64,000 bases of DNA from an uncultured Lachnospiraceae bacterium (lineage in GTDB: Bacteria; Bacillota; Clostridia; Lachnospirales; Lachnospiraceae), in assembly GCA_934352055.1 (NCBI GenBank), contig CAKRJY010000009.1, positions 34,207 to 98,206 on the forward strand. Reading direction: 5' to 3'. Shown one piece after another: positions 1-64,000 of the stretch (position 1 is the stretch's first letter; each line of letters opens with the position of its first letter). The notes beneath the pieces are model-generated. The model searched no databases. It was not told where the DNA came from and worked only from the letters and a program-made list of their open reading frames with translations. Position numbers and translations under genes: made by a program.

Positions 1-1943
1 TCATCTTTTCGAAGCAGTGATACGCTATTATCCCTCGCTACAACTTCTTTTCCATCCGGATTGTACATTGCAACATCCTCCGCATGCGAATAACAGGTAT
101 CACCAACAGCAAAATGCGGTCCTGTTTTTTCTGCAATTAAAATCGGAAGTTTATCTGCTATATCATAGTCCCTTGCCATGCGATATGCTGTTGTATTTGT
201 TCCAATTGCAAATTCTCCCAGCGGCAATGTCTTATGATGATATAACACGTTATCCTGAATATACTTTTTATTTTCTTCCTCTGTAGCAAAGTTTGCACAT
301 CGATATGCTGTGATTTTTCCATCGGTAAATGTGATTTCCAAATCCTTGTAGCAAAGTTCTCCCAGATAAACCTGGGTTACATGCAAGACGCCATTGGTAC
401 CCTCAAGCACCGGTGATGTAAATACTTCACCTACCGGAATATTCACATCGGCAACACAATTTTCAAAAATGGTCTCCTTAGACGGATCCTGTAATGGATG
501 CAGCTTTACCGTAATATCGGTATGGTTTGCACCACGTCCTGTCACATGGACACTTTCTCCCTTGTCTAAAGCATCAATGATATGCTGCTGTATGTTTTGA
601 TATTTTTCATAATCAAGTGTATTGAGTAATACCGTTTTTTCAAAAATCTCTTCGAACTGGTCTCCAATTGCGGGCACCGGATATGCGATAATGGTAAAAC
701 TGTAAGCTTCTCCCGGAATATACGTATTTGTGACTTTTCCGGATTCGATTGCACTATACACATTCAGTGAATTCTGCTTATCTGTATATTTTGCATTTGC
801 CTCTTTATTTTGGGGTGCAAATGGTTCTTCTCCAAAGACCTCAACGACTGCAGGACCTCCAAAAGCAAGTGCCTTATCCTTTTCTTTTTCAAAGGTATCG
901 CGCATGATTTCCAGACGTCTTTCCACAAATGATTTGTCAAAATAATACGCCTTGTCATCCTTATGATCATAATCAAACTGACGGTTCATAGAAACACTAT
1001 AATAGCCTCGCTTGCCGCCGCCTCTGCCATACAAAGAAATGGTAGCTTCCCGCAGAATAGTCGTCTGTAATCCCATCTCGGCAAACTGCTGTATTGCAGC
1101 TCTTACCATACGCTCCATACCAACAGGTGCCTCTATTTTTACTGTCTTTTTCGCCTTTAAGTCTTTTCCGGTAACTTCAAAGCCTTTGCGATAGCCCTCG
1201 GTAAAGGTGTGCGCCATGGCATCAATCTTCTCTTGTGGCATCTGTCGTAAATAATCTGCCATCAAAAGCTCATTACTTCCAATTGGTGCACCAATACGGT
1301 ATAAATAGCGATTATCCGACAAGTCTGCTTCTTCTATCCACTTTGTGAAAAAATCGTACGAAGCATCGATCATCGGATTTATGGTATCCGGCACAAAAAT
1401 CTCTGCATAATCATGGTAAAACCAATAAATCGCATCTTTTACATTGCCTGCAATCCACTGCTTTGAATCCTCGGAAAAGGCCACCAGCCCTTCTTCCTGC
1501 TCCTGTGTCTCTTCCACGAAAAATCCATGCATTTCTACAAATAATTCGCTCCAGATACAAAGCAGATCCAAGCGGCCTTCGTATGCATCCGGTATCGTCG
1601 ACAATAAATCGGCGTACAACATACTCAGCATGCCACCCAATTCTTTTCCCAAGATGCGCTGCGCATACGCCGGATTCAGATAACTTTTGTCGTATACTTC
1701 AGGTCGCAGGCGGTCATACAACGCATCATGCATCTGCTGACGCTGTTCTAATGCATATGTCTCATATGTTTTTTCTATGATACATGCATAACTTTTTTTC
1801 ACCAGACTAAGAAAGGCTGCCACTTCACGGAAATATGATGCAAATGGCTCTACAATCTCCGCATCCTGCTCCAATTGTTCTATTCGCTCACTCACAAGCG
1901 AAAAACGTTCTTCATATTCTTCCATCTGTTCCAACTGTCTCAT
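1..1943 (-). CDS. M29-like (aminopeptidase T/PepS-type) aminopeptidase, long form; 3' end runs off the left window edge
   Basis: Absent from the ORF track because it has no in-window stop. My reverse translation from ATG 1943-1941 (MRQLEQMEEYEERF...) stays open to base 1. The C-terminal half has NIPVGEVFTSP...LGEFAIGTN...GPHFAVGD, the pattern of M29 aminopeptidases. Confidence 0.6.
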   Translation of the reverse strand, partial: MRQLEQMEEYEERFSLVSERIEQLEQDAEIVEPFASYFREVAAFLSLVKKSYACIIEKTYETYALEQRQQMHDALYDRLRPEVYDKSYLNPAYAQRILGKELGGMLSMLYADLLSTIPDAYEGRLDLLCIWSELFVEMHGFFVEETQEQEEGLVAFSEDSKQWIAGNVKDAIYWFYHDYAEIFVPDTINPMIDASYDFFTKWIEEADLSDNRYLYRIGAPIGSNELLMADYLRQMPQEKIDAMAHTFTEGYRKGFEVTGKDLKAKKTVKIEAPVGMERMVRAAIQQFAEMGLQTTILREATISLYGRGGGKRGYYSVSMNRQFDYDHKDDKAYYFDKSFVERRLEIMRDTFEKEKDKALAFGGPAVVEVFGEEPFAPQNKEANAKYTDKQNSLNVYSAIESGKVTNTYIPGEAYSFTIIAYPVPAIGDQFEEIFEKTVLLNTLDYEKYQNIQQHIIDALDKGESVHVTGRGANHTDITVKLHPLQDPSKETIFENCVADVNIPVGEVFTSPVLEGTNGVLHVTQVYLGELCYKDLEITFTDGKITAYRCANFATEEENKKYIQDNVLYHHKTLPLGEFAIGTNTTAYRMARDYDIADKLPILIAEKTGPHFAVGDTCYSHAEDVAMYNPDGKEVVARDNSVSLLRKD

Positions 1944-15624: not shown

Positions 15625-17061
15625 TTATTTTTCCTGCATCCAGGCATAATAAAATTGGAGCAAACCAATTCTTGCCTTGGTATTTGTTTTCTCATTCATA
15701 TTCGAAATATGACGGTACAATGCTGCTCGTGAAATAGCAAGCTGCGTCGCCATCTCTGTCACATTATCTTCAGAATGAAGCATGCACGCAAGTACTTCCA
15801 CTTCGCGTGGTGTTAAGGAAAACTCCTGTGCAAAAAGTGCAAGCCATTCCTCTTCGTTTTTCTTATGTGTTTCTAATATTTTTTCTGTTTTTTGTGCTTC
15901 CTGCGATAAAATTGCATTTTCCTGTTTCCATCGCATTTGATCCCCAGATCTCTGGTACACAAAAATCAAAACACTTGTAATGGCAAATAGCACAAGCGCA
16001 ATTACAATGGTGACATAACTTGGCGAATGTAACAGTGTCAGTGACATCGAAGCCGTTCCCACCACACACAGATTGTTGACAGCACGCCCCAATCCAGCCC
16101 ACAGCTTTCCCTCTTTCATTGCATACGAAAGACGCATAAAACTGCTGGCAAAATAGATAGAAAAGAAGCCGGCTGACAGATAAAATACAACAAGTCCCAA
16201 TAGAAATGGACCACCGCACGTGATTACAACCACGCAAATCGTTGAAAGCATCATCACACAATACATGATGATGTTCTGGTAAGCACCTTTTTTGATATCA
16301 TATAAAAATCCTGCAAGCAAACCACTGCACGCAAGTAAAAGTCTCGGCCATTGTCCGATATCCGCACCTCCACCAGCATGTATCAATGTCACCGCGTTAT
16401 CTAATGTTGCAAAAATAAATGTCATGAGCGCAACAATAAAAATCAACAGCATACCCGTCTTTCGCGCAGCACCATCAGCTTCTATGACCGGATGTGTTTC
16501 TCCTTGCGTTTCGATCTGCTGTGCTTTTACCATAAATAAGCCTTCCATAACAGCAAAAGCCAGACATAAGAAAACCACCTGTACTGCTACTGATGAAATA
16601 CAATTGTTATTGATAAACTGCAATAAAATCCCAAATGCATAGGCACAGCCTACCGTTCGCGCCAAATGTGATTGTTCTGTCTCGATTTCTGCCGCAAAAG
16701 TCTGCGCAACCAAATAATGCACACCACTTCCAAAATACCCAAGCAACAAAAATAAAAACAAACCGGCGCGCAATGTGTGTCCATATCCGCTATGAATCTT
16801 GATAAAAAAGAACATCAGAATCACGGCTGCACTGCTCACGCTCCAAAACAGCCGCTTTATCTTTGCCGGTAACATTTTTTCCATTGGTGCATACAGCAGA
16901 AAACCCAGCACACTACTACCTAAAACATAACTCTGTGCTAAGACCACGCCATCTGCATCTGTCACAAAGGCCATCATATTATCAAAATAATACTCTGCAC
17001 CGAGAAATACAAAGTAAAAAATTCCAAGCATTAAAATTGATCTCACAGTACCTTTTCTCAT
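15625..17061 (-). CDS. polytopic membrane protein fused to a C-terminal LuxR/GerE-type HTH
   Basis: About 11-12 predicted TM helices, then LTPREVEVLACMLHSEDNVTEMATQLAISRAALYRHISNMNEKT. Start moved to MRKGTVRS (17061) because the track's upstream extension lies inside the ALDH relic. Confidence 0.7.
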   Translation of the reverse strand: MRKGTVRSILMLGIFYFVFLGAEYYFDNMMAFVTDADGVVLAQSYVLGSSVLGFLLYAPMEKMLPAKIKRLFWSVSSAAVILMFFFIKIHSGYGHTLRAGLFLFLLLGYFGSGVHYLVAQTFAAEIETEQSHLARTVGCAYAFGILLQFINNNCISSVAVQVVFLCLAFAVMEGLFMVKAQQIETQGETHPVIEADGAARKTGMLLIFIVALMTFIFATLDNAVTLIHAGGGADIGQWPRLLLACSGLLAGFLYDIKKGAYQNIIMYCVMMLSTICVVVITCGGPFLLGLVVFYLSAGFFSIYFASSFMRLSYAMKEGKLWAGLGRAVNNLCVVGTASMSLTLLHSPSYVTIVIALVLFAITSVLIFVYQRSGDQMRWKQENAILSQEAQKTEKILETHKKNEEEWLALFAQEFSLTPREVEVLACMLHSEDNVTEMATQLAISRAALYRHISNMNEKTNTKARIGLLQFYYAWMQEK

Positions 17062-56523: not shown

Positions 56524-56916
56524 TTATGAATACAATTCCTTATAAATAGCATCCAGATCATAGTCTGGTGCATATTTCTTGCCAACATCATAAACTCTTT
56601 GGACTTCGGCAACATCCATATCAAAGAAATCTGCTATCTGACTCGTACTTTTTCCTCGGTTCATCTGTTGCATGATTACAGAAATCACATTCTGTCTGCG
56701 CCCTGCTTTGAGTCCCTCTGCTCGTCCTTCTTCGCGTCCTTCCGCACGTCCTTCTTCCAGACCCTGATTATGGTATATTCTCTTCAGTAGTTCTTTTTCT
56801 TCATATGCTCTCATATAACTCAGCCCTACCTTTCTGTTATCCTTTATCTGAGATACCATGCTCTGTAATTCCCGCAAGTCTTCCGTCACTGCGTTTTCGT
56901 CTGTGGATTCTTCAAA
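56524..56916 (-). pseudogene. 5'-truncated tandem duplicate of the adjacent Rpn-like gene (C-terminal third only)
   Basis: Encodes FEESTDENAVTEDLRELQSMVSQIKDNRKV...YDLDAIYKELYS, near-identical to residues about 200-321 of the 56945..57910 product, plus an extra EGRAEGREEGRAEG insertion. No upstream coding sequence. Confidence 0.7.
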
Positions 56917-56944: not shown

Positions 56945-57910
56945 TTATGAATACAATTCCTTATAAATGGCATCCAGATCATAGTCTGGTGCATATTTCT
57001 TGCCAACATCATAAACTCTTTGGACTTCAGCAACATCCATATCAAAGAATTCCGCTATCTGACTCGTACTTTTTCCTCGGTTCATCTGTTGCATAATCAC
57101 AGAAATCATCTGCTGTCTGCGTCCTGCTTTGAGTCCTGCTTCGCGTCCTTCTTCCAGACCCTGATTATGGTATATTCTCTTCAGTAGTTCTTTTTCTTCA
57201 TATGCTCTCATATAACTCAGCCCTACCTTTCTATTATCCTTTATCTGAGATACCATGCTCTGTAATTCCCGCAAGTCTTCCGTCACTGCGTTCTCGTCTG
57301 TGGACTCTTCAAAATATGTAAGAAATTTCCGTAAATCTTCAGAGTAATTCCCAACACTACCCTTCGTATATAAGAAAATCGTCATTGCTCCATCCTCATA
57401 TTCCATATCCGGTTGCTCGACACAGTAATTCTTAATTGTGTAAACCATCCGGTTATATCCAAAGGGATCAAATGGGGTAATGAAAATCACATATACTTTT
57501 TTTAGTTTCCGATAATCCTCTCCACTGGGAAGCGCTGCATTATCAATCTTCGCATGGTAAAATCGAACTCGCTTTGGGAGTCCTTCTACTGATATTGTAT
57601 CATGATTTTTCTCAGGTTCAATATCAAAAATCGAAGAATCATCCTCGATAATCTGCGCCATTTCTTCTGTTTTTCCATCTGGGCTCACCGTCTCTTCAAT
57701 ATACACATCCAATCTGGCGCCGTGCATATCGGTGTCCACTCCATAAAACACCTTTTGCGGTGTGATCTGAATGTCTGCTATTTCTTTTCCTAAAATAAGT
57801 TTAATCAACTTCCTTGAAAAAGGAATACCTACGTCTGGGTCCGTCATCATTGCACCAAATAAAAAGTTGTCAATCAGACTTAAGTCCTGCAAAGTTTTCT
57901 TTTGCTTCAT
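56945..57910 (-). CDS. Rpn-family (PD-(D/E)xK, TIGR01784-like) recombination-promoting nuclease / putative transposase
   Basis: 321 aa. N-terminus LIDNFLFGAMM... and GARLDVYIEE...IFDIEPEK nuclease-like motif. C-terminal EEGREAG repeats typical of this family. Confidence 0.65.
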   Translation of the reverse strand: MKQKKTLQDLSLIDNFLFGAMMTDPDVGIPFSRKLIKLILGKEIADIQITPQKVFYGVDTDMHGARLDVYIEETVSPDGKTEEMAQIIEDDSSIFDIEPEKNHDTISVEGLPKRVRFYHAKIDNAALPSGEDYRKLKKVYVIFITPFDPFGYNRMVYTIKNYCVEQPDMEYEDGAMTIFLYTKGSVGNYSEDLRKFLTYFEESTDENAVTEDLRELQSMVSQIKDNRKVGLSYMRAYEEKELLKRIYHNQGLEEGREAGLKAGRRQQMISVIMQQMNRGKSTSQIAEFFDMDVAEVQRVYDVGKKYAPDYDLDAIYKELYS

Positions 57911-58085
57911 AATGCCTCTCTTTCCGGCAGTACAAGATAATAGAATCGACCTGTCTGCCTAAATATAAAATTGTGTGTATACATTCATGGAAACATTGGT
58001 CGAACTGACCGGAGAATTCCTAGAAAGTGCATCTAGCATAACAAAGTGGCTCGTAAATTGCAAGTCACCTGAAAAAAAATCTCAA

Positions 58086-58131
58086 CAAAAAGAGGTCGCA
58101 GGGAAATGATTTCTCAATTCCCTACGACCTC
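58086..58131 (-). terminator. terminator of the left flagellin gene (member of the GAGGTCGCAGGGA hairpin family)
   Basis: Minus strand: gaggtcgtaggga-N14-tccctgcgacctc followed by tttttgtt. Confidence 0.65.
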
Positions 58132-58200: not shown

Positions 58201-59586
58201 TTACTGAAGTAATGAAAGAACACCCTGTGTAGACTGGTTAGCCTGAGCAAGCATTGACTGTCCTGCCTGTGTAAGAATGTTATTCTTAGAGTACTTAACC
58301 ATTTCATCAGCCATATCTGTATCGCGGATACGTGATTCAGCAGATGTTGTGTTTTCAACAACGTTATCCAAGTTGTCGATTGTGTGCTCAAGACGGTTCT
58401 GGATAGCACCAAGGCTAGATCTCTGATCTGAAACCTTCTGTAATGCATCGCTGATAGCATCGATTGCATATGTTGCAGCCTTACCTGAATCATCAGATAC
58501 GTTTAATCCCTGAATTCCTAAGTATGCAGAATTCATTGTCTCGATATTTACATTAATCTTATTTGTCATGTCTGCATCAGAACCTACATGAAGATTGAAG
58601 GACAACTGCTGTGCTGCATCTGCTTTTCCTTTAGTGATTTCAAATGTTACACCCGTATCCTTTGCATAAGTTCCAGCTTGAATTGTTGCTGCTGTTTTTG
58701 TTGCACCAATGTTGTTAGCTGCTGTCAGCTCAGCTGTCATAAGTCCAACTGCCTTCGCTGCAGAAATAACAGATGAATCTGACTTATCAACACCTGTTGC
58801 ATCAAAATCTGCTACTGTCATAGATTTTCCGCCAACTTCTACTGTTGCACCAGCTTTAACAAGCTTTTCTAATTCAGATTTTTTATACTTGAAATCAGCT
58901 TCGCTATGATTAGCATCTTCCACCAAGGTGTATTCTTGTCCATTAATCTTTGCTTTTACTGTTCCATCATAAGTATTTCCAAGTAATGCCTTTGCATCTG
59001 CTTCTGTTGCACCAATTGTATAGTTCTTTCCACCAATTGTAACAGCTTTTCCTGGATCAAGTGCACCAGCAGCAACCTTGAATGTTCCTGTTGTTTCGCC
59101 ATCTGTTAAAGTTCCCTTTAATCCAGCATCATGAGCCTTCATGTACACTTCTTTTGTTGCAGCATTATCATCACCCTTCAACAAGTATGTCTCGTTGAAC
59201 TTTGTTGTTTCAGCAACACGATCGATTTCTGTTGTTAACTGCTCAATCTCTGACTGGATAGCATCTCTATCTGTCTGTGAGTTTGTTCCGTTAGAAGCCT
59301 GTACTGAAAGTTCGTTCATTCTCTGAAGCATTGAGTGAACTTCTGTCAAAGCACCTTCAGCTGTCTGTACTGCAGATACACCATCCTGTGCGTTTGTAGA
59401 AGCCTGATCAAGACCACGAATCTGCTTACGCATCTTTTCAGAAATAGAAAGACCTGCTGCATCATCTGCTGCGCGGTTAATTCTATAACCTGAAGAAAGT
59501 TTCTCTGTTGACTTAGCCTGCTGACCTGCTGTAATGTTAAGCATTCTTGAGGCATTTGCTGCCTGCATATTGTGTTGAACAACCAT
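58201..59586 (-). CDS. flagellin (461 aa)
   Basis: MVVQHNMQAANASRMLNITAGQQAKSTEKLSSGYRINRAADDAAGLSISEKMR... N-terminal D0/D1 region and C-terminal ...LGAIQNRLEHTIDNL...SMLAQANQSTQGVLSLLQ. Confidence 0.95.
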   Translation of the reverse strand: MVVQHNMQAANASRMLNITAGQQAKSTEKLSSGYRINRAADDAAGLSISEKMRKQIRGLDQASTNAQDGVSAVQTAEGALTEVHSMLQRMNELSVQASNGTNSQTDRDAIQSEIEQLTTEIDRVAETTKFNETYLLKGDDNAATKEVYMKAHDAGLKGTLTDGETTGTFKVAAGALDPGKAVTIGGKNYTIGATEADAKALLGNTYDGTVKAKINGQEYTLVEDANHSEADFKYKKSELEKLVKAGATVEVGGKSMTVADFDATGVDKSDSSVISAAKAVGLMTAELTAANNIGATKTAATIQAGTYAKDTGVTFEITKGKADAAQQLSFNLHVGSDADMTNKINVNIETMNSAYLGIQGLNVSDDSGKAATYAIDAISDALQKVSDQRSSLGAIQNRLEHTIDNLDNVVENTTSAESRIRDTDMADEMVKYSKNNILTQAGQSMLAQANQSTQGVLSLLQ

Positions 59587-59594
59587 AATATTTA

Positions 59595-59644
59595 CCTCCG
59601 TGTGTTTGTTTGGTTTGTCCCCATGAAAAATCCTTTTTTCATGG
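59595..59644 (-). promoter_or_regulatory. flagellin 5' leader: 10-bp hairpin with a GGA loop plus a GGA-containing SD (CsrA-type sites)
   Basis: Minus strand: ccatgaaaaa-AGGA-tttttcatgg (59621-59644) and acaCGGAGGt SD (59595-59600). Confidence 0.45.
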
Positions 59645-59695
59645 TTTTGATTAATAGTTCCTTTATAATCAACCCGCGCCTAGGTTCGCAGGTAA

Positions 59696-59725
59696 ATTAT
59701 CTTTTTTGTTGGGGATTGTTGTGAA
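59696..59725 (-). promoter_or_regulatory. candidate promoter inside the left repeat arm
   Basis: Minus strand: TTCACA, 18 nt spacer, GATAAT. The base before the -10 is A here and C in the right copy (aaaAGATAAT vs aaaCGATAAT). Confidence 0.25.
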
Positions 59726-59729
59726 CCAC

Positions 59730-59753
59730 GTAACAAAATAGATATTGTGTTTC
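59730..59753. promoter_or_regulatory. degenerate 24-bp palindrome at the inner end of the left arm (candidate recombinase site)
   Basis: gtaacaaaata-ga-tattgtgtttc. Nine of eleven arm positions are complementary. Homologous to the perfect site at 60758-60781. Confidence 0.4.
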
Positions 59754-59920
59754 ATCCCTTACACCATATATTTCGGACATTACTCTAAATACTTAACCCC
59801 CAAAATATAAATATTTTTCCAAAAGTTGAATGTATTTCTAAATGCTGCTTCTAAATTTTACTTTTTCACTCAACCGTTAATTATGCAAACAAATATATAC
59901 CTGCTATCTAGGATTCCTTA

Positions 59921-59929
59921 ATTATAGCA
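59921..59929 (-). promoter_or_regulatory. extended -10 promoter element (TGCTATAAT) in the unique core, facing the left flagellin gene
   Basis: Minus strand reads catGcTATAAT. No good -35, which is usual for TGn promoters. The surrounding DNA is AT-rich, so a chance match is possible. Confidence 0.3.
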
Positions 59930-60169
59930 TGATATTTGAATTTGAATATCCATTATTAGGGCTTTATTTGACCTCAGAACAGAATCTTGATTGTTAGACG
60001 TATTTTCAGTTGGATTTTAGTTTTTCATTCAATGATTCGGGCATGCGAACGAAATCTTGCGAACATTCCGTTTCTATTTTCTGAAATACTTTGCAAGAGC
60101 ATGTGGCAGAAGCGCGGGGAACCGCCATGGTGGAGTATAATAGCCTGCAAAAACCAGGAGGTTATTACC

Positions 60170-60748
60170 ATGAATAAAGCACAACCCATAAAAAATGCTA
60201 TGCAATTAGAAACTTTTAAAAATTATTACTATAGAGTGCATTATCATCCCAGAAATCACATGTTTATCACGATGGGATTAAATACAGCACTGCGCGTATC
60301 AGACTTGCTTCGCCTCAAATGGTGTGATGTGTTCGATTATGACAATGTATGTTATCGAGAGCATGTGTTTTTGGTTGAACAAAAGACGCAGAAGAAATCC
60401 TATATTTATATAAATGAAAGGGTGGCAGAGACACTTCTATGGTATCAAAATACTTATGCGTATATGCCGCAACCGCAGGAATACTTGTTTTCAAACGAAA
60501 ACGGGACTGCTATTTCGCGTGTAAGCGCATACCGCATTGTGCGTCTGGCAGCAGAAAACTGTCATATTGAGGGCGTAATCAGTCCACATTCTCTTCGTAA
60601 AACTTTTGGCTATCAAGCCTGGATAAAAGGCGTTTCGCCGGTTCTATTAATGGATATTTATCAACATTCCTCATTTGAAATCACAAAACGATACCTAGGT
60701 ATTGAGCAGGATGAACGAGATTCTGTTTTCCGTGAAGTCATTATCTAG
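60170..60748 (+). CDS. small (192 aa) tyrosine site-specific recombinase, catalytic domain only (FimB/FimE-sized)
   Basis: Start at MNKAQPIK, 7 nt after AGGAGG. Catalytic set present: LRVSDLLRL (Arg I), EQKTQKK (Lys), HSLRKTF (His-x-x-Arg), HSSFEITKRYL (His...Tyr). Confidence 0.85.
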   Translation: MNKAQPIKNAMQLETFKNYYYRVHYHPRNHMFITMGLNTALRVSDLLRLKWCDVFDYDNVCYREHVFLVEQKTQKKSYIYINERVAETLLWYQNTYAYMPQPQEYLFSNENGTAISRVSAYRIVRLAAENCHIEGVISPHSLRKTFGYQAWIKGVSPVLLMDIYQHSSFEITKRYLGIEQDERDSVFREVII

Positions 60749-60757
60749 CAGACATGT

Positions 60758-60781
60758 GTAACACAATATCTATTGTGTTAC
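60758..60781. promoter_or_regulatory. perfect 24-bp palindrome at the inner end of the right arm (candidate recombinase site)
   Basis: GTAACACAATA-tc-TATTGTGTTAC, with 11-bp perfect arms. It begins 10 nt after the recombinase stop codon. Confidence 0.45.
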
Positions 60782-60785
60782 GCGG

Positions 60786-60815
60786 TTCACAGCAATTCCC
60801 TACAAAAACGATAAT
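60786..60815 (+). promoter_or_regulatory. candidate promoter inside the right repeat arm
   Basis: TTCACA, 18 nt spacer, GATAAT. The extended sequence aaaCGATAAt also resembles a sigma-28 -10 (CGATAA), but I see no TAAA -35. Confidence 0.25.
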
Positions 60816-60868
60816 TTACCTGCGAACCTAGGCGCAGGCTAATTATAAAGACACTTTATTAATCAAAA

Positions 60869-60919
60869 CCATGAAAAACGGATTTTTCATGGGGACAAAC
60901 CAAAACAAACACACGGAGG
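60869..60919 (+). promoter_or_regulatory. flagellin 5' leader: 10-bp hairpin with a GGA loop plus a GGA-containing SD (CsrA-type sites)
   Basis: ccatgaaaaa-CGGA-tttttcatgg (60869-60892) and acaCGGAGGt (60914-60919). Confidence 0.45.
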
Positions 60920-60927
60920 TAAATATT

Positions 60928-62439
60928 ATGGTTGTTCAACACAATATGCAGGCAGCAAATGCCTCAAGAATGCTTAACATTACAGCAGGTCAGCAGGCTA
61001 AGTCAACAGAGAAACTTTCTTCAGGTTATAGAATTAACCGCGCAGCAGATGATGCAGCAGGTCTTTCTATTTCTGAAAAGATGCGTAAGCAGATTCGTGG
61101 TCTTGATCAGGCTTCTACAAACGCACAGGATGGTGTATCTGCAGTACAGACAGCTGAAGGTGCTTTGACAGAAGTTCACTCAATGCTTCAGAGAATGAAC
61201 GAACTTTCAGTACAGGCTTCTAATGGAACAAACTCAAAGACAGATAGAGATGCTATCCAGTCAGAAATTGAACAGTTAACAACAGAAATCGATCGTGTTG
61301 CTGAAACAACAAAGTTCAACGAAACATACCTTTTGAAGGGTGATGCTGATGGCAAAAAGTCTTCTACAACAATCAATGCACATGATGCCGGCTTAAAGGG
61401 AACTTTAACAAATGTTGGTACAGGAACAGCTACTTTCAAGCTTGATAAAGAATTAGCAAATGATGACAAGGTAACGATTGGTGGTAAGGAATATACGATT
61501 GATACTACTAAGGCAGATACAGCTGTTGTAAAGCAGCCAACAAGTGCTGCAATCACACAAGAAACTGCAGGTGCAGCTGGCGCTAAAGCCAAATACAAAC
61601 TTGATTTGGCTGGTATGACAAGTACAGCCGGTGATGTAACCTTTAATATTGGCGGCAAAGATTATAAAGTAACTGTTGCTGCCGGAGATGATGCTGCTGC
61701 AATCGCAGGAAAATTAAAAGCAGCATATGCCGCTGATGAAATTACCGCTAATGCAACTGCCGGCAAATACAAGGCAACTGCTACTGGCACTGCTATCACA
61801 TTTGAAGCGGAAAATAATGGTGTCATTGCAGCTGGTGAAGCATTAACAGGAACAGCTACAATCGCTGCAGTAGAAAATGGCACAAATGAAATCAGTATAA
61901 ATGATGCTTACAACATGATGGCTAAAGAGTTGGAAACAGCTAGCAGCCTTGGAGCAGATACTGGTGCTACCGTAACTAATAACGGCAATGGTTCTTTCAC
62001 CATCGCTGAAGGAAGTGCTGCTATCACAGCTTCCTTGTCTTTCAACTTGCATGTTGGTTCTGATGCAGATATGACAAACAAGATTAATGTTGATATCAAC
62101 ACAATGAATTCTTCATATCTTGGAATCAAAGGATTAGATGTTTCTGATAAGACAGGTACAGCTGCAACATATGCAATTGATGCTATTGCTGATGCTTTAC
62201 AGAAGGTTTCTGATCAGAGATCTAGTCTTGGTGCTATCCAGAACCGTCTTGAGCACACAATCGACAACTTGGATAACGTTGTTGAAAACACAACCTCTGC
62301 TGAATCACGTATCCGCGATACAGATATGGCTGATGAAATGGTTAAGTACTCTAAGAATAACATTCTTCAGCAGGCAGGACAGTCAATGCTTGCTCAGGCT
62401 AACCAGTCTACACAGGGTGTTCTTTCATTACTTCAGTAA
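60928..62439 (+). CDS. flagellin (503 aa)
   Basis: True start is MVVQHNMQ at 60928; the track ORF begins upstream at 60871. The first ~120 and last ~95 residues are near-identical to the left flagellin. The central ~290 residues are unrelated and A/T/G-rich. Confidence 0.95.
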   Translation: MVVQHNMQAANASRMLNITAGQQAKSTEKLSSGYRINRAADDAAGLSISEKMRKQIRGLDQASTNAQDGVSAVQTAEGALTEVHSMLQRMNELSVQASNGTNSKTDRDAIQSEIEQLTTEIDRVAETTKFNETYLLKGDADGKKSSTTINAHDAGLKGTLTNVGTGTATFKLDKELANDDKVTIGGKEYTIDTTKADTAVVKQPTSAAITQETAGAAGAKAKYKLDLAGMTSTAGDVTFNIGGKDYKVTVAAGDDAAAIAGKLKAAYAADEITANATAGKYKATATGTAITFEAENNGVIAAGEALTGTATIAAVENGTNEISINDAYNMMAKELETASSLGADTGATVTNNGNGSFTIAEGSAAITASLSFNLHVGSDADMTNKINVDINTMNSSYLGIKGLDVSDKTGTAATYAIDAIADALQKVSDQRSSLGAIQNRLEHTIDNLDNVVENTTSAESRIRDTDMADEMVKYSKNNILQQAGQSMLAQANQSTQGVLSLLQ

Positions 62440-62507
62440 TCTAGGTTTTTCGTAAATATCTTTTGATGATTTGCGATGCTGATTTGTAATAAATGAGCAC
62501 AAAACAA

Positions 62508-62550
62508 GAGGTCGCAGGGATTTAAAAATCAAATCCCTGCGACCTCTTTT
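62508..62550 (+). terminator. terminator of the right flagellin gene (GAGGTCGCAGGGATTT hairpin family)
   Basis: gaggtcgcagggattt-N7-aaatccctgcgacctc followed by tttt. Confidence 0.7.
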
Positions 62551-62843: not shown

Positions 62844-63797
62844 ATGAAGCAAAAGAAAACTTTGCAGGACTTAAGTCTGATTGACAACTTTTTATTTGGT
62901 GCCATGATGACGGACCCAGATGTTGGCATTCCCTTTTCAAGGAAGTTGATTAAACTTATTTTAGGGAAAGAAATAGCAGACATTCAGATCACACCGCAAA
63001 AGGTATTTTATGGAGTGGACACCGATATGCACGGCGCCAGATTAGATGTGTATATTGAAGAGACGGTGAACCCGGATGGGCAAACAGAGGAAATGGCGCA
63101 GATTATCGAGGATGATTCTTCGATTTTTGATATTGAACCTGAGAAAAATCATGATACAATATCAATAGAAGGACTTCCTAAGCGAGTCCGGTTTTACCAT
63201 GCGAAGATAGATAATGCAGCACTTCCTAGCGGAGAGGATTATCGGAAACTCAAAAAGGTATATGTGATTTTCATCACACCATTTGATCCCTTTGGATATA
63301 ATCGGATGGTTTACACAATCAAAAATTATTGTGTCGAGCAACCGGATATGGAATATGAGGATGGAGCAATGACAATTTTTTTATATACGAAGGGAAGCGT
63401 TGGGAATTATTCTGAGGATTTACAGAAATTTCTCACATACTTTGAAGAGTCCACAGACGAAAACGCAGTGACAGATGACTTGCGGGAATTACAGAGCATG
63501 GTATCTCAGATAAAAGATAACAGAAAGGTAGGACTGAGTTATATGAGAGCATATGAAGAAAAAGAACTACTGAAGAGAATATACCATAATCAAGGACTGG
63601 AAGAAGGACTCGAAGCAGGGCGCAGACAGCAGATGATTTCTGTGATCATGCAACAGATAAACCGAGGAAAAAGTACGGGTCAGATAGCAGAACTCTTTGA
63701 TATGGATGTTGCTGAAGTTCAAAGAGTTTATGATGTTGGCAAGAAATATGCACCGGATTATGATTTAGATGCCATTTATAAGGAATTGTGTTCATAA
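62844..63797 (+). CDS. Rpn-family (PD-(D/E)xK, TIGR01784-like) recombination-promoting nuclease / putative transposase
   Basis: 317 aa. More than 95% identical by eye to the 56945..57910 product. Confidence 0.65.
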   Translation: MKQKKTLQDLSLIDNFLFGAMMTDPDVGIPFSRKLIKLILGKEIADIQITPQKVFYGVDTDMHGARLDVYIEETVNPDGQTEEMAQIIEDDSSIFDIEPEKNHDTISIEGLPKRVRFYHAKIDNAALPSGEDYRKLKKVYVIFITPFDPFGYNRMVYTIKNYCVEQPDMEYEDGAMTIFLYTKGSVGNYSEDLQKFLTYFEESTDENAVTDDLRELQSMVSQIKDNRKVGLSYMRAYEEKELLKRIYHNQGLEEGLEAGRRQQMISVIMQQINRGKSTGQIAELFDMDVAEVQRVYDVGKKYAPDYDLDAIYKELCS

Positions 63798-63813
63798 GAC
63801 ATGCAATAAATTA

Positions 63814-63862
63814 GAGGTCGCAGGGATTTACAAATCCCCACGACCTCTTTCTTTCTCTTTTT
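63814..63862 (+). terminator. terminator (third full copy of the GAGGTCGCAGGGATTT hairpin)
   Basis: gaggtcgcagggattt-ac-aaatccccacgacctc followed by tttctttctcttttt. Confidence 0.6.
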
Positions 63863-63913
63863 CTTTATACGCTTATGCCCTATACTGGCTTATTCTTAGC
63901 ACCCACGACCATC

Positions 63914-64000
63914 CTACATATCCCAGTCTGCCTGTCTTGTATGTAAGAGTTCGTGCGATTTATGAGACAATGGTTCTCCTAAGAATTTATCATAAATCTG
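63914..64000 (-). CDS. possible 3' end of a minus-strand gene entering from the right edge
   Basis: Only one reverse frame is open to base 64000 (...QIYDKFLGEPLSHKSHELLHTRQADWDM*). Too short to identify. Confidence 0.25.
   Translation of the reverse strand, partial: QIYDKFLGEPLSHKSHELLHTRQADWDM

Follow-up and report, generated by a model that had tools for sequence, protein, structure and literature searches.

Two 24-bp palindromes lie at the inner ends of a pair of inverted arms, each carrying a flagellin gene, on a contig of an uncultured Lachnospiraceae bacterium, and they raise the question of whether the roughly 1 kb of DNA between them is turned around by site-specific recombination and what such a rearrangement would serve. 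We examined the whole 64-kb stretch of this contig (hereafter, the window; features in Table 1) together with homologous loci. In all probability the palindromes serve as the recombination sites for a flip cassette of 1 kb, which contains a recombinase gene and a single flagellar promoter; we consider it likely, on balance, that the segment from 59754 to 60757 is an invertible promoter cassette toggling expression between the two flagellin genes.

Table 1 Features of the flagellin locus, in positions of the window
Feature	Position	Strand	Details and basis
Rpn-family recombination-promoting nuclease gene	56945..57910	-	TIGR01784, 74.7 bits (cut-off 52.1); outer part of left large arm
flaL, 461-aa flagellin	58201..59586	-	Flagellin_N and Flagellin_C; now downstream of the putative core promoter
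321-nt exact inverted repeat, left copy	59291..59611	-	End of leader and first 296 nt of flagellin gene
Left 5' leader	59587..59729	-	GATAAT 59701-59696; covarying hairpin with loop AACCTAGG, 59692-59673; CsrA-type hairpin with GGA loop, 59644-59621; Shine-Dalgarno GGAGG
Left recombination site (probable)	59730..59753	.	Imperfect palindrome GTAACAAAA-TAGATA-TTGTGTTTC; sequence; homologous to left sites of L143, L153 and L001; family geometry 24-25 bp
Candidate invertible core, 1,004 bp	59754..60757	.	Lies between the two sites; its edges mark the end of arm homology
Putative sigma-28 (FliA/SigD)-type promoter motif	59769..59796	-	-35 TTAAGTAT, 59796-59789; -10 CCGAAATA, 59776-59769
Conserved -10 box GTATAAT, putative promoter of the recombinase gene	60135..60141	+	Counterpart in L035 and L143 by alignment
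Tyrosine recombinase, 192 aa, catalytic domain only	60170..60748	+	PF00589
Right recombination site (probable)	60758..60781	.	Perfect palindrome GTAACACAA-TATCTA-TTGTGTTAC; 10 nt 3' of recombinase stop codon
Right 5' leader, mirror of left	60782..60927	+	GATAAT 60810-60815; hairpin 60819-60838; CsrA-type hairpin 60869-60892
321-nt exact inverted repeat, right copy	60903..61223	+	Repeat comparison
flaR, 503-aa flagellin	60928..62439	+	Flagellin domains; now on promoter-distal side
Rpn-family gene	62844..63797	+	Outer part of right large arm; family by 93% arm homology (I1) to left copy

Read directly from the sequence, the left site is GTAACAAAATAGATATTGTGTTTC and the right site GTAACACAATATCTATTGTGTTAC. 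In agreement with the initial annotation, the 11-nt arms of the right site are flawless and flank a central TC, and the recombinase stop codon (TAG) occupies 60746-60748, so that the site begins 10 nt downstream of it. The left site had been described as the same element with two arm mismatches; these indeed fall one in each arm, around a central GA, and the two sites differ at 59736 and 59752. Because TC and GA are reverse complements, the sites stand in inverted orientation to each other. They are separated by 1,004 bp and are the only two occurrences of the palindrome in the 64 kb when up to three mismatches are allowed (0.00 expected from 100 dinucleotide shuffles). The earlier statement that arm homology ends at the inner edges of the palindromes also stands, to within 1 nt: an inverted-repeat scan placed the innermost arm pair (99 nt, 88% identical) at 59656-59754 and 60757-60855. 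The large arms, I1, cover 852 nt at 93% identity.

The internal layout of the sites could be refined using their homologues. All of 95 homologous sites measured 24 or 25 bp, with the outer ~10 nt of each half conserved (G-Y-A-A-C-A-N-W-N-T). Inverted half-sites around a short spacer, as originally proposed, are thus retained, but half-sites of 9-10 bp around an AT-rich, asymmetric centre of 4-6 bp (TAGATA / TATCTA here) fit this conservation better than 11-bp arms around a 2-bp spacer. The left site of a strain with 97% identity (L153, L154) carries a single mismatch (GTAACACAATAGATATTGTGTTTC), making the A at 59736 a strain-level SNP. That the left site is mismatched in each half counts against a toggle. 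The suggestion that the asymmetry of the sites biases switching in a fim-like manner is pure conjecture; a single inversion with central crossover would leave one mismatch in each site, and the contrast between a perfect and a degenerate site therefore belongs to the present orientation alone. The predicted junctions of the inverted state are the left arm followed by GTAACA(A/C)AATA..TATTGTGTTAC and ACATGTCTGCTAG, and CGAAATATATGGTGTAAGGGAT followed by GAAACACAATA.. and the right arm.

The recombinase encoded between the sites matched a single Pfam family, Phage_integrase (69.6 bits against a cut-off of 27.1, residues 28-176). Its catalytic residues R42, K72, H140, R143, H166 and Y175 are invariant across 20 homologues and, as judged from its sequence, the enzyme is catalytically intact. 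Its score lies under the curated cut-off of every NCBIfam family. XerA was the best PDB match, and the best NCBIfam match, XerA_Arch (73.4 bits, cut-off 220), covers the catalytic half only (profile positions 111-260); with just 27 residues preceding the catalytic domain, the protein has neither the score nor the N-terminal core-binding domain of XerC, XerD or XerA. It is the same size as FimB and FimE and colinear with their profiles over almost its full length, but scores of 36.6 and 35.3 bits (PRK09870 and PRK09871; cut-offs 221 and 222) are far too low to make it a member of that family.

The core also holds a sigma-28 motif that the initial annotation had overlooked and that supplies a purpose for inversion. 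Located 16 bp inside the left palindrome, it points outward through the left site towards flaL, and agrees with the published sigma-28 consensus TAAA-N15-CCGATAT (PMC3720852). It is the sole match to the sigma-28 family motif in the 64 kb (0.2 expected), both arms being devoid of one in the same search of the window; a second sigma-28-like match, at 16336-16361, lies within a gene on the opposite strand and was set aside as a chance match. The outward motif is likewise kept in L001, L035 and L143. Of the 58 short-repeat elements in GTDB genomes, 52 have it just inside one repeat and facing outward, and 46 of these adjoin a flagellin gene. The motif at 59769-59796 is presumably a functional flagellin promoter. 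Family elements measure 725-1,040 bp from outer edge to outer edge of the repeats, and the core of this species includes a species-specific non-coding insert of ~285 nt at about 59815-60110. A search of 59400-61100 against Rfam gave no match at E <= 1.

From these features we propose the following mechanism. Dimers of the small tyrosine recombinase encoded by the cassette would bind both 24-bp palindromes through half-sites GTAACACAA placed around the mutually inverted centres; the recombinase would synapse the two sites, and strand exchange within the centre would flip the core. The lone sigma-28 promoter would fire outward across whichever palindrome it adjoins, its transcript, predicted to start at about 59762 (minus strand) in the sequenced form, entering a leader with CsrA-type GGA hairpins and continuing into flaL in the sequenced orientation and into flaR in the inverted one. 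The two flagellins are identical over their first 100 aa and 20-40% identical over a middle part of ~250 aa, their difference being confined to the central domain. With identical filament-core ends and a differing exposed middle, flipping would change the flagellar antigen while motility is kept. We infer that the copy of this species still flips and that the arms have no sufficient promoters of their own.

Homologous loci provide the evidence for inversion. An initial search of GTDB genomes with peptides of this recombinase returned no genome of this species, the best match being 67% identical. More than 588 homologues were found in Lachnospiraceae genomes of GTDB, of which 80 were examined. 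In most of these, the recombinase is flanked by palindromic inverted repeats of 24-25 bp with the same half-site, including in relatives that lack long arms; a csrA-flagellin pair lies directly beyond the repeats and an outward sigma-28 motif within. In the species designated P0058, whose recombinase is 54% identical, seven metagenome contigs carry one orientation and three the other. The core is 100% identical in both, and the flanks are exchanged within AGGTAACACAAGTATAATTGTGTTACCT, a 28-bp palindromic repeat. A 308-aa ORF beside this switch is not a flagellin; it has no Pfam domain, and its C-terminus resembles Rpn by eye only. P0003, the closest two-flagellin relative (recombinase 78% identical, same synteny), yielded four complete and two partial contigs in one state and three complete and one partial in the other. 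The exact repeat shared there is ~21 nt, shorter than assembler k-mers and thus too short to produce these states as an assembly artefact. The half-site GTAACACAA is present at the inversion junctions of both species. Inversion exactly at the repeats was also seen between species (L100 versus L112 and L094; L055 versus L060). Counting against a toggle, a single orientation was found throughout the contigs of P0017, P0023, P0111 and P0041, four of six further species examined, and the long contigs of the two relatives at 76% and 78% whose outer flanks are conserved have the same orientation.

At the locus itself, none of at least 13 contigs, a small sample, is inverted at the palindromes. Sixteen arm-specific SNPs close to the sites report the orientation of the core, and by these no contig of this species or of the 97% strain has an inverted core. 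Samples carrying the species include ERZ27287355, ERZ28614768 and ERZ27287018. The right end of the core, when looked for by exact matching in the JGI metagenome collection, was not found, the species being absent from that collection. The original claim that the palindromes bound an invertible core of ~1 kb is accordingly borne out at homologous sites (P0058, P0003 and between species) but not by the contigs of this species. In terms of the features that define an inverton, the locus has a short segment between two inverted repeats and, encoded inside it, a cognate recombinase of predicted activity. Both orientations with junctions in the repeats occur at the homologous loci (7:3 in P0058, about 6:4 in P0003) and were not found at the locus itself, while a promoter reading out across the repeat is represented by motif evidence, the family-conserved outward sigma-28 motif on the minus strand.

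The palindromes might instead be used rarely or never in this species, with the promoter re-paired with the other flagellin by homologous (RecA-type) exchange between the identical 5' repeats of 321 bp, which would invert ~1.9 kb (the core and both leaders), as at the Campylobacter fetus sap locus. This reading, itself compatible with a toggle, appears to us somewhat unlikely. It draws on four to five contigs (L012, L013, L014 from two samples, and L016), found in ERZ4561226, ERZ4561697, ERZ27287071 and ERZ28614262, in which the right arm is joined to the flaL variable region: an R-type leader (16 of 16 SNPs) stands at the recombinase stop codon and leads into the variable region of flaL and then into L-type sequence downstream, up to 784 nt. 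These L-type tails rule out gene conversion of the variable region only. The switch point always falls within the 321-nt exact repeat, which points either to homologous recombination or to assembly ambiguity. Perfect identity over 321 nt beside neighbours that are 88-95% identical argues for ongoing exchange between the copies, the right arm of L011 is a mosaic, and inversion at the level of the palindromes was not seen in this species. On the other hand, the repeat exceeds assembler k-mers, and short-read contigs cannot phase it; the SPAdes contigs have a coverage of just 2.7-3.4x; the reciprocal junction (L-type leader with flaR variable region, on the left side) was never found; and the six short contigs all enter flaL and none flaR, which resembles an assembler preferring the branch with more coverage. 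The long contigs (53-116 kb) all match the arrangement of the window. Junctions within the flagellin 5' repeats, named at the outset as the outcome that would speak for RecA-type rather than palindrome-centred inversion, may thus exist in the four to five contigs, but their reading is ambiguous for the same reason of repeat length.

A second alternative accepts inversion and denies it any effect on the choice of flagellin: each arm would have its own promoter, formed by TTCACA-18-GATAAT or by GATAAT and the 5' hairpin, and the core motif would be irrelevant or have another role. The sigma-70-like sequence, a 10/12 match, is found in both arms just outside the palindromes and, with the GATAAT conserved in both, means that the flagellins might own promoters. 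GATAAT followed by the covarying hairpin (loop AACCTAGG) is kept in the window, L001, L002, L011 and L035. Moreover, the sigma-28 promoter is directed away from the flagellin in 43 of the 46 classifiable genomes, which would leave that flagellin silent unless another promoter exists. We nevertheless hold this alternative to be improbable. The TTCACA -35 element is not conserved, differing in L011, L153 and L035; the arms lack a sigma-28 motif; no other purpose is obvious for a strictly conserved outward sigma-28 motif in an invertible cassette beside flagellins; and in P0003, a toggle relative, contigs of either orientation occur in about equal numbers, which is what two productive states would lead one to expect. 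It is very unlikely indeed that the palindromes, instead of being recombination sites, serve a dimeric regulator as operators or end transcription of the recombinase gene, and were duplicated with the arms: they are palindromic, each arm has a -35-like hexamer directly downstream of its palindrome and the right one follows the recombinase stop codon, but the right site has no T-run, an AT-rich stem with a 2-4-nt loop makes a poor terminator, and the homologous palindromes both flank the recombinase where long arms are missing and form the exact junctions of the observed inversions.

The two-flagellin toggle layout is also found in L143 (76%), L035 (78%) and Eubacterium xylanophilum ATCC 35991 (L109). 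We tentatively suggest, at somewhat less than even confidence, that gut Lachnospiraceae possess a large, undescribed family of self-contained flagellin switches, each with a catalytic-domain-only tyrosine recombinase, palindromic sites of 24-25 bp and an outward sigma-28 promoter, convergent with Hin and mostly assembled with the promoter facing away from csrA-flagellin and hence with a silent, immune-evasive flagellin; that several lineages, including the present one and E. xylanophilum, acquired another flagellin gene at the unused end, giving a true antigenic toggle; and that homologous recombination between the 321-bp repeats is a second route of re-pairing here. Our literature search found no description of such a switch, although bulk inverton catalogues may list these loci undescribed. 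Lachnospiraceae flagellins are major TLR5 and antibody targets in the human gut, and the dominant anti-flagellin responses of Crohn's disease are among these (for example PMC10441350, PMC11285207). A heritable and reversible switch that silences or swaps flagellin would, if confirmed, explain how commensals vary their flagellin exposure, and also why some fliC genes seem promoterless and why assemblies break upstream of them (PMC3720852). The orientation of the cassette (~0.8-1 kb) would be a simple sequence marker that can be scored in any metagenome, and the module a compact pairing of a recombinase with its two sites.

The proposed switch follows the logic of Hin but would be driven by a tyrosine recombinase. 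In the H-segment of Salmonella enterica (Hin, hixL/hixR, fljBA), imperfect palindromes of ~26 bp enclose a segment of ~1 kb whose promoter reads outward into a flagellin operon, such that two antigens alternate. Shared with that system are the palindrome-bounded segment of ~1 kb with its own recombinase and, here, a putative outward promoter, and the two flagellin antigens; the csrA gene preceding the flagellin in most relatives is loosely parallel to fljA. The enzyme, in contrast, is a PF00589 tyrosine recombinase and not a serine invertase, its only Pfam match placing it outside the Hin/Gin/Cin group, and a Fis-type enhancer is not evident here. Since the second flagellin lies directly across the cassette and one promoter would serve both genes, no repressor of the other flagellin is needed, unlike in the Hin system. 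Like FimB and FimE at Escherichia coli fimS, the recombinase is a small tyrosine recombinase (~200 aa) that has no large N-terminal DNA-binding domain and would invert a promoter; unlike at fimS, its gene is inside the segment, the sites are palindromes of 24-25 bp as opposed to 9-bp repeats with flanking half-sites, and the target is flagellin rather than fimbriae, in a toggle rather than an ON/OFF switch. Site-specific inversion by Piv in Moraxella bovis and Moraxella lacunata also alternates two variants of a filament subunit, but Piv is a DEDD transposase-like enzyme that swaps coding segments, whereas here the promoter would be swapped. At Campylobacter fetus sapA, one invertible promoter stands between two opposed surface-protein genes whose 5' ends are long inverted repeats, a mode that would accommodate both the exact 5' repeats of 321 bp and the contigs with the alternative junctions described above; the C. 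fetus system is RecA-dependent and has no dedicated recombinase or short core sites, while both are present here and are used in relatives. Finally, at the Clostridioides difficile RecV switch upstream of flgB (PMC5386303, PMC7446863), tyrosine-recombinase inversion likewise governs flagellar expression in a member of the gut Clostridia. That switch is 154 bp long, belongs to the leader region of the early flagellar operon, takes effect post-initiation (Rho) and depends on a recombinase encoded elsewhere, whereas the present element is 1 kb long, encodes its own recombinase, bears the putative promoter on the cassette and would act on flagellin genes only.

The flagellin locus is built as a ~6.9-kb inverted duplication about a unique 1,004-bp core, and runs, from left to right, Rpn gene, flaL, leader, left site, core, right site, leader, flaR and Rpn gene (see table). 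The two flagellins are identical over their first 100 residues and nearly so over the last ~110, the middle ~250 being only 20–40% identical, a profile of the kind that would be expected of antigenic variants of one filament. The recombinase has a complete catalytic set (R42, K72, H140, R143, H166 and Y175), preceded by just 27 residues N-terminal to the catalytic domain, and scored well under the curated cut-offs of the XerA/C/D and FimB/FimE "tyrosine-type DNA invertase" models. The core also holds a ~285-nt non-coding insert (~59815–60110), flanked by the sigma-28 promoter on one side and that of the recombinase on the other, in which no ORF was found, which has no other copy in the window and which is missing from the related loci L035, L143 and L001. 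The Rpn genes are of the "recombination-promoting nuclease / putative transposase" family; an ORF with an Rpn-like C-terminus was seen beside the switch in the species carrying recombinase P0058 (L134, 1065–1991, minus strand). In contig L021, the sequence downstream of flaL is joined straight to sequence like 63813–64000 of the window (1594–1780), and the left Rpn gene is therefore missing in that strain. One and the same GC-rich terminator-like hairpin (GAGGTCGCAGGGA...) occurs after each flagellin gene and after the right Rpn gene (58083–58121, 62506–62548 and 63813–63854).

Features of the flagellin locus, in window coordinates
Feature	Position	Strand	Remarks
Partial third Rpn copy	56524-56889	-	Adjoins left Rpn gene
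Rpn-family nuclease gene	56945-57910	-	Outer left large arm; TIGR01784, 74.7 bits
flaL flagellin	58201-59586	-	461 aa; left of core
Left leader (flaL to left site)			143 nt
GATAAT + hairpin element, left	59660-59701		Mirror of right copy
Left site	59730-59753		GTAACAAAATAGATATTGTGTTTC; 1 mismatch per arm; read directly
Sigma-28 (FliA/SigD)-type motif	59796-59769	-	TTAAGTAT-N12-CCGAAATA; 16 bp inside left palindrome
Recombinase	60170-60748		192 aa; inside core; Pfam Phage_integrase, 69.6 bits
Recombinase stop codon	60746-60748
Right site	60758-60781		GTAACACAATATCTATTGTGTTAC; perfect palindrome; read directly
Right leader (right site to flaR)			146 nt
GATAAT + hairpin element, right	60810-60850		Also in L001, L002, L011, L035
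flaR flagellin	60928-62439	+	503 aa; right of core
Second Rpn gene	62844-63797	+	Outer right large arm

Both palindromes proposed in the initial annotation were seen on direct reading, the right one perfect and the left one with two mismatches, and a search allowing up to 3 mismatches returned these two matches alone in 64 kb and none in 100 shuffles. The innermost block of the inverted repeat spans 59656–59754 and 60757–60855; arm homology thus extends no further inward than the palindromes' inner edges, as had been claimed. The inverted orientation of the sites held as well, since their centres, TC (right) and GA (left), are reverse complements of each other. Strand exchange by tyrosine recombinases needs matching centres, which exact reverse complementarity provides here. 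The mismatch at 59736 is a recent SNP, because it is missing in a 97%-identical strain; that at 59752 (GTTTC) is common to the window, L035, L143 and L153 and falls on the family's variable position 2. Inversion with crossover in the centre would split the two mismatches, one per site, so that the asymmetry between a perfect and a degenerate site would be a feature of one orientation only. In the lineage of L035, a 78% relative, the left site is duplicated (2215–2238 and 2256–2279, in direct orientation and 17 nt apart) and it is the outer copy that is used: the inner one travels with the core, and the observed inversions are at the outer. The single left site of L143 and of the window looks like a fusion of L035's two.

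The consensus for Lachnospiraceae flagellin genes is TAAA-N15-CCGATAT (PMC3720852), with which the sigma-28 motif of the core agrees. This motif, not noticed in the initial annotation, is the only sequence in the window that fits the family motif (0.2 matches expected), and the predicted promoter points out of the core, across the left palindrome, toward flaL. The leader downstream of it carries a hairpin with GGA in its loop and a GGAGG ribosome-binding site, the arrangement that CsrA binds on flagellin mRNAs in Firmicutes. A less likely alternative is that the flagellins have promoters of their own in the arms: TTCACA-18-GATAAT is present in both arms, and GATAAT, a hairpin and then ATTATAAAG make up a conserved element upstream of the flagellin leader, although the -35 part has been swapped for unrelated sequence in L011, L153 and L035. 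The hairpin stem of this element covaries (CCTGCG/CGCAGG in the window, CTCACG/CGTGGG in L011 and CATGTG/CACATG in L001), the loop sequence AACCTAGG never changes, and the element had no match in Rfam; its possible roles are those of a proximal promoter whose transcript is stabilised by a 5′ stem-loop, or of a site for protein binding.

Relatives of the recombinase in the protein collection numbered 2,838 at E ≤ 1e-20, with more than 588 in GTDB representative genomes, nearly all of these being Lachnospiraceae, among them Roseburia, Eubacterium, Lachnospira and Anaerocolumna. Among 80 family loci examined (L044–L123), a clear pair of short inverted repeats surrounded the recombinase in 58, two had long arms instead and 20 had no clear pair; site length was always 24 or 25 bp over 95 sites, with the half-site G-Y-A-A-C-A-N-W-N-T. 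Family loci have the sigma-28 motif just within one repeat, facing outward, and immediately outside one repeat come a csrA paralogue and then a flagellin gene. The position of the promoter relative to the recombinase gene varies (upstream in the window, downstream in L004, L067 and L109), its outward orientation beside a repeat being constant. In the assembled sequences it shows a strong bias, being directed away from csrA-flagellin in 43 of the 46 classifiable loci and toward it in three; by eye, L079 and L111 also have it toward csrA-flagellin. In the species carrying P0017, P0023, P0111 and P0041, all contigs of each have the promoter turned from csrA-flagellin. A DUF2442 gene lies between recombinase and csrA-flagellin in the P0111 species (L124–L132; 3146–3415, minus strand). 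The two-flagellin layout recurs in Eubacterium xylanophilum ATCC 35991 and in L143, whose recombinase is 76% identical and whose right flank holds the same hydrogenase gene as the window. csrA, present between site and flagellin in nearly all relatives, has been lost from the window's arms; the remnant between site and GATAAT (59701–59729 and 60782–60809) is hypervariable among strains, with ~65–105-nt insertions in L011 and L153.

In relatives, the cassette inverts at the palindromes. Comparison of L100 with L112 (or L094) revealed the element forward and both flanks reversed, with the repeat arms as breakpoints, and L055 and L060 differed by the same pattern. Among contigs of the P0058 species, whose recombinase shares 54% identity with that of the window, seven, from different gut metagenomes, had one orientation and three the other; their cores were 100% identical, the outside flanks were exchanged base-for-base at AGGTAACACAAGTATAATTGTGTTACCT, and the promoter in the minority state was toward csrA-flagellin. 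The P0003 loci (recombinase 78% identical), which of all relatives sharing the window's two-armed layout and synteny are the closest, occurred in two states differing solely in the side of the core taken by each csrA-flagellin arm (four complete and two partial contigs versus three and one). The P0003 junctions have only ~21 nt (GTAACACACTATCTATTAAGT) in common; every final assembler k-mer is longer than this, so that the two states must each exist as real molecules. We are all but certain that the family is a real invertible sigma-28 promoter switch.

The claim that the paired inverted palindromes give inversion was borne out in relatives, with junctions at the repeats, but not among this species' own contigs. 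Exact-protein look-ups of the recombinase and both flagellins yielded 13 or more distinct contigs, and the 97%-identical strain contributed another two. In all of them, the 16 SNPs that tell the two leaders apart were L-type next to the promoter and R-type next to the stop codon (L-type and R-type being arm-specific variants), so that these contigs gave no direct sign of this copy flipping at the palindromes. The initial annotation had named junctions within the flagellin 5′ coding repeats, and hence RecA-type recombination, as the outcome that would speak against it, and such type changes are seen in some contigs: L012, L013, L014 (two samples) and L016 pass from an R-type leader into the variable region of flaL and on into L-type sequence downstream of it, the change always lying inside a 321-nt stretch exactly identical in both arms (59291–59611 and 60903–61223). 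This repeat, however, exceeds assembler k-mers, SPAdes contig coverage was 2.7–3.4x, the reciprocal junction was never seen, and the six short contigs without exception run into flaL, never into flaR, which looks like coverage-driven branch choice; assembly ambiguity may thus account for the type change, RecA-type exchange is not acceptable as shown, and we regard it as somewhat less likely than not that it really lies behind these contigs. If true, it would also place the other flagellin under the one promoter, as a complement to the site-specific mechanism and not a contradiction of it. The arms do exchange sequence, since the perfect stretch has neighbours only 88–95% identical between arms and L011 has a mosaic arm; the 321-nt identity is suggestive of a gene conversion that has recently involved the 5′ ends of the two flagellin genes. 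With site-specific inversion as the preferred reading, we consider it likely that the window's palindromes are the recombination sites of the cassette, which would then act as a toggle between the flagellins, and marginally favor the view that this copy still flips at a measurable rate.

Full-text literature searches and look-ups of papers found no description of this Lachnospiraceae switch; bulk inverton surveys name flagellar genes as predicted targets and give no detail on them (PMC11602134). The closest system in logic and size is the Salmonella Hin/hix H-segment, with which the cassette shares a recombinase encoded within the segment, a flagellin promoter facing outward (a predicted one in the cassette) and palindromic sites (~26 bp in Hin/hix), and from which it differs in that its enzyme is a tyrosine recombinase. 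That enzyme is similar to FimB/FimE in size and domain make-up, yet falls under the thresholds of that family. The RecV flagellar switch of C. difficile has another size, another position and another mode of action than the cassette, and does not encode its own recombinase. As a probable toggle of two genes with long 5′ repeats, the locus is reminiscent of the sap inversion of C. fetus.
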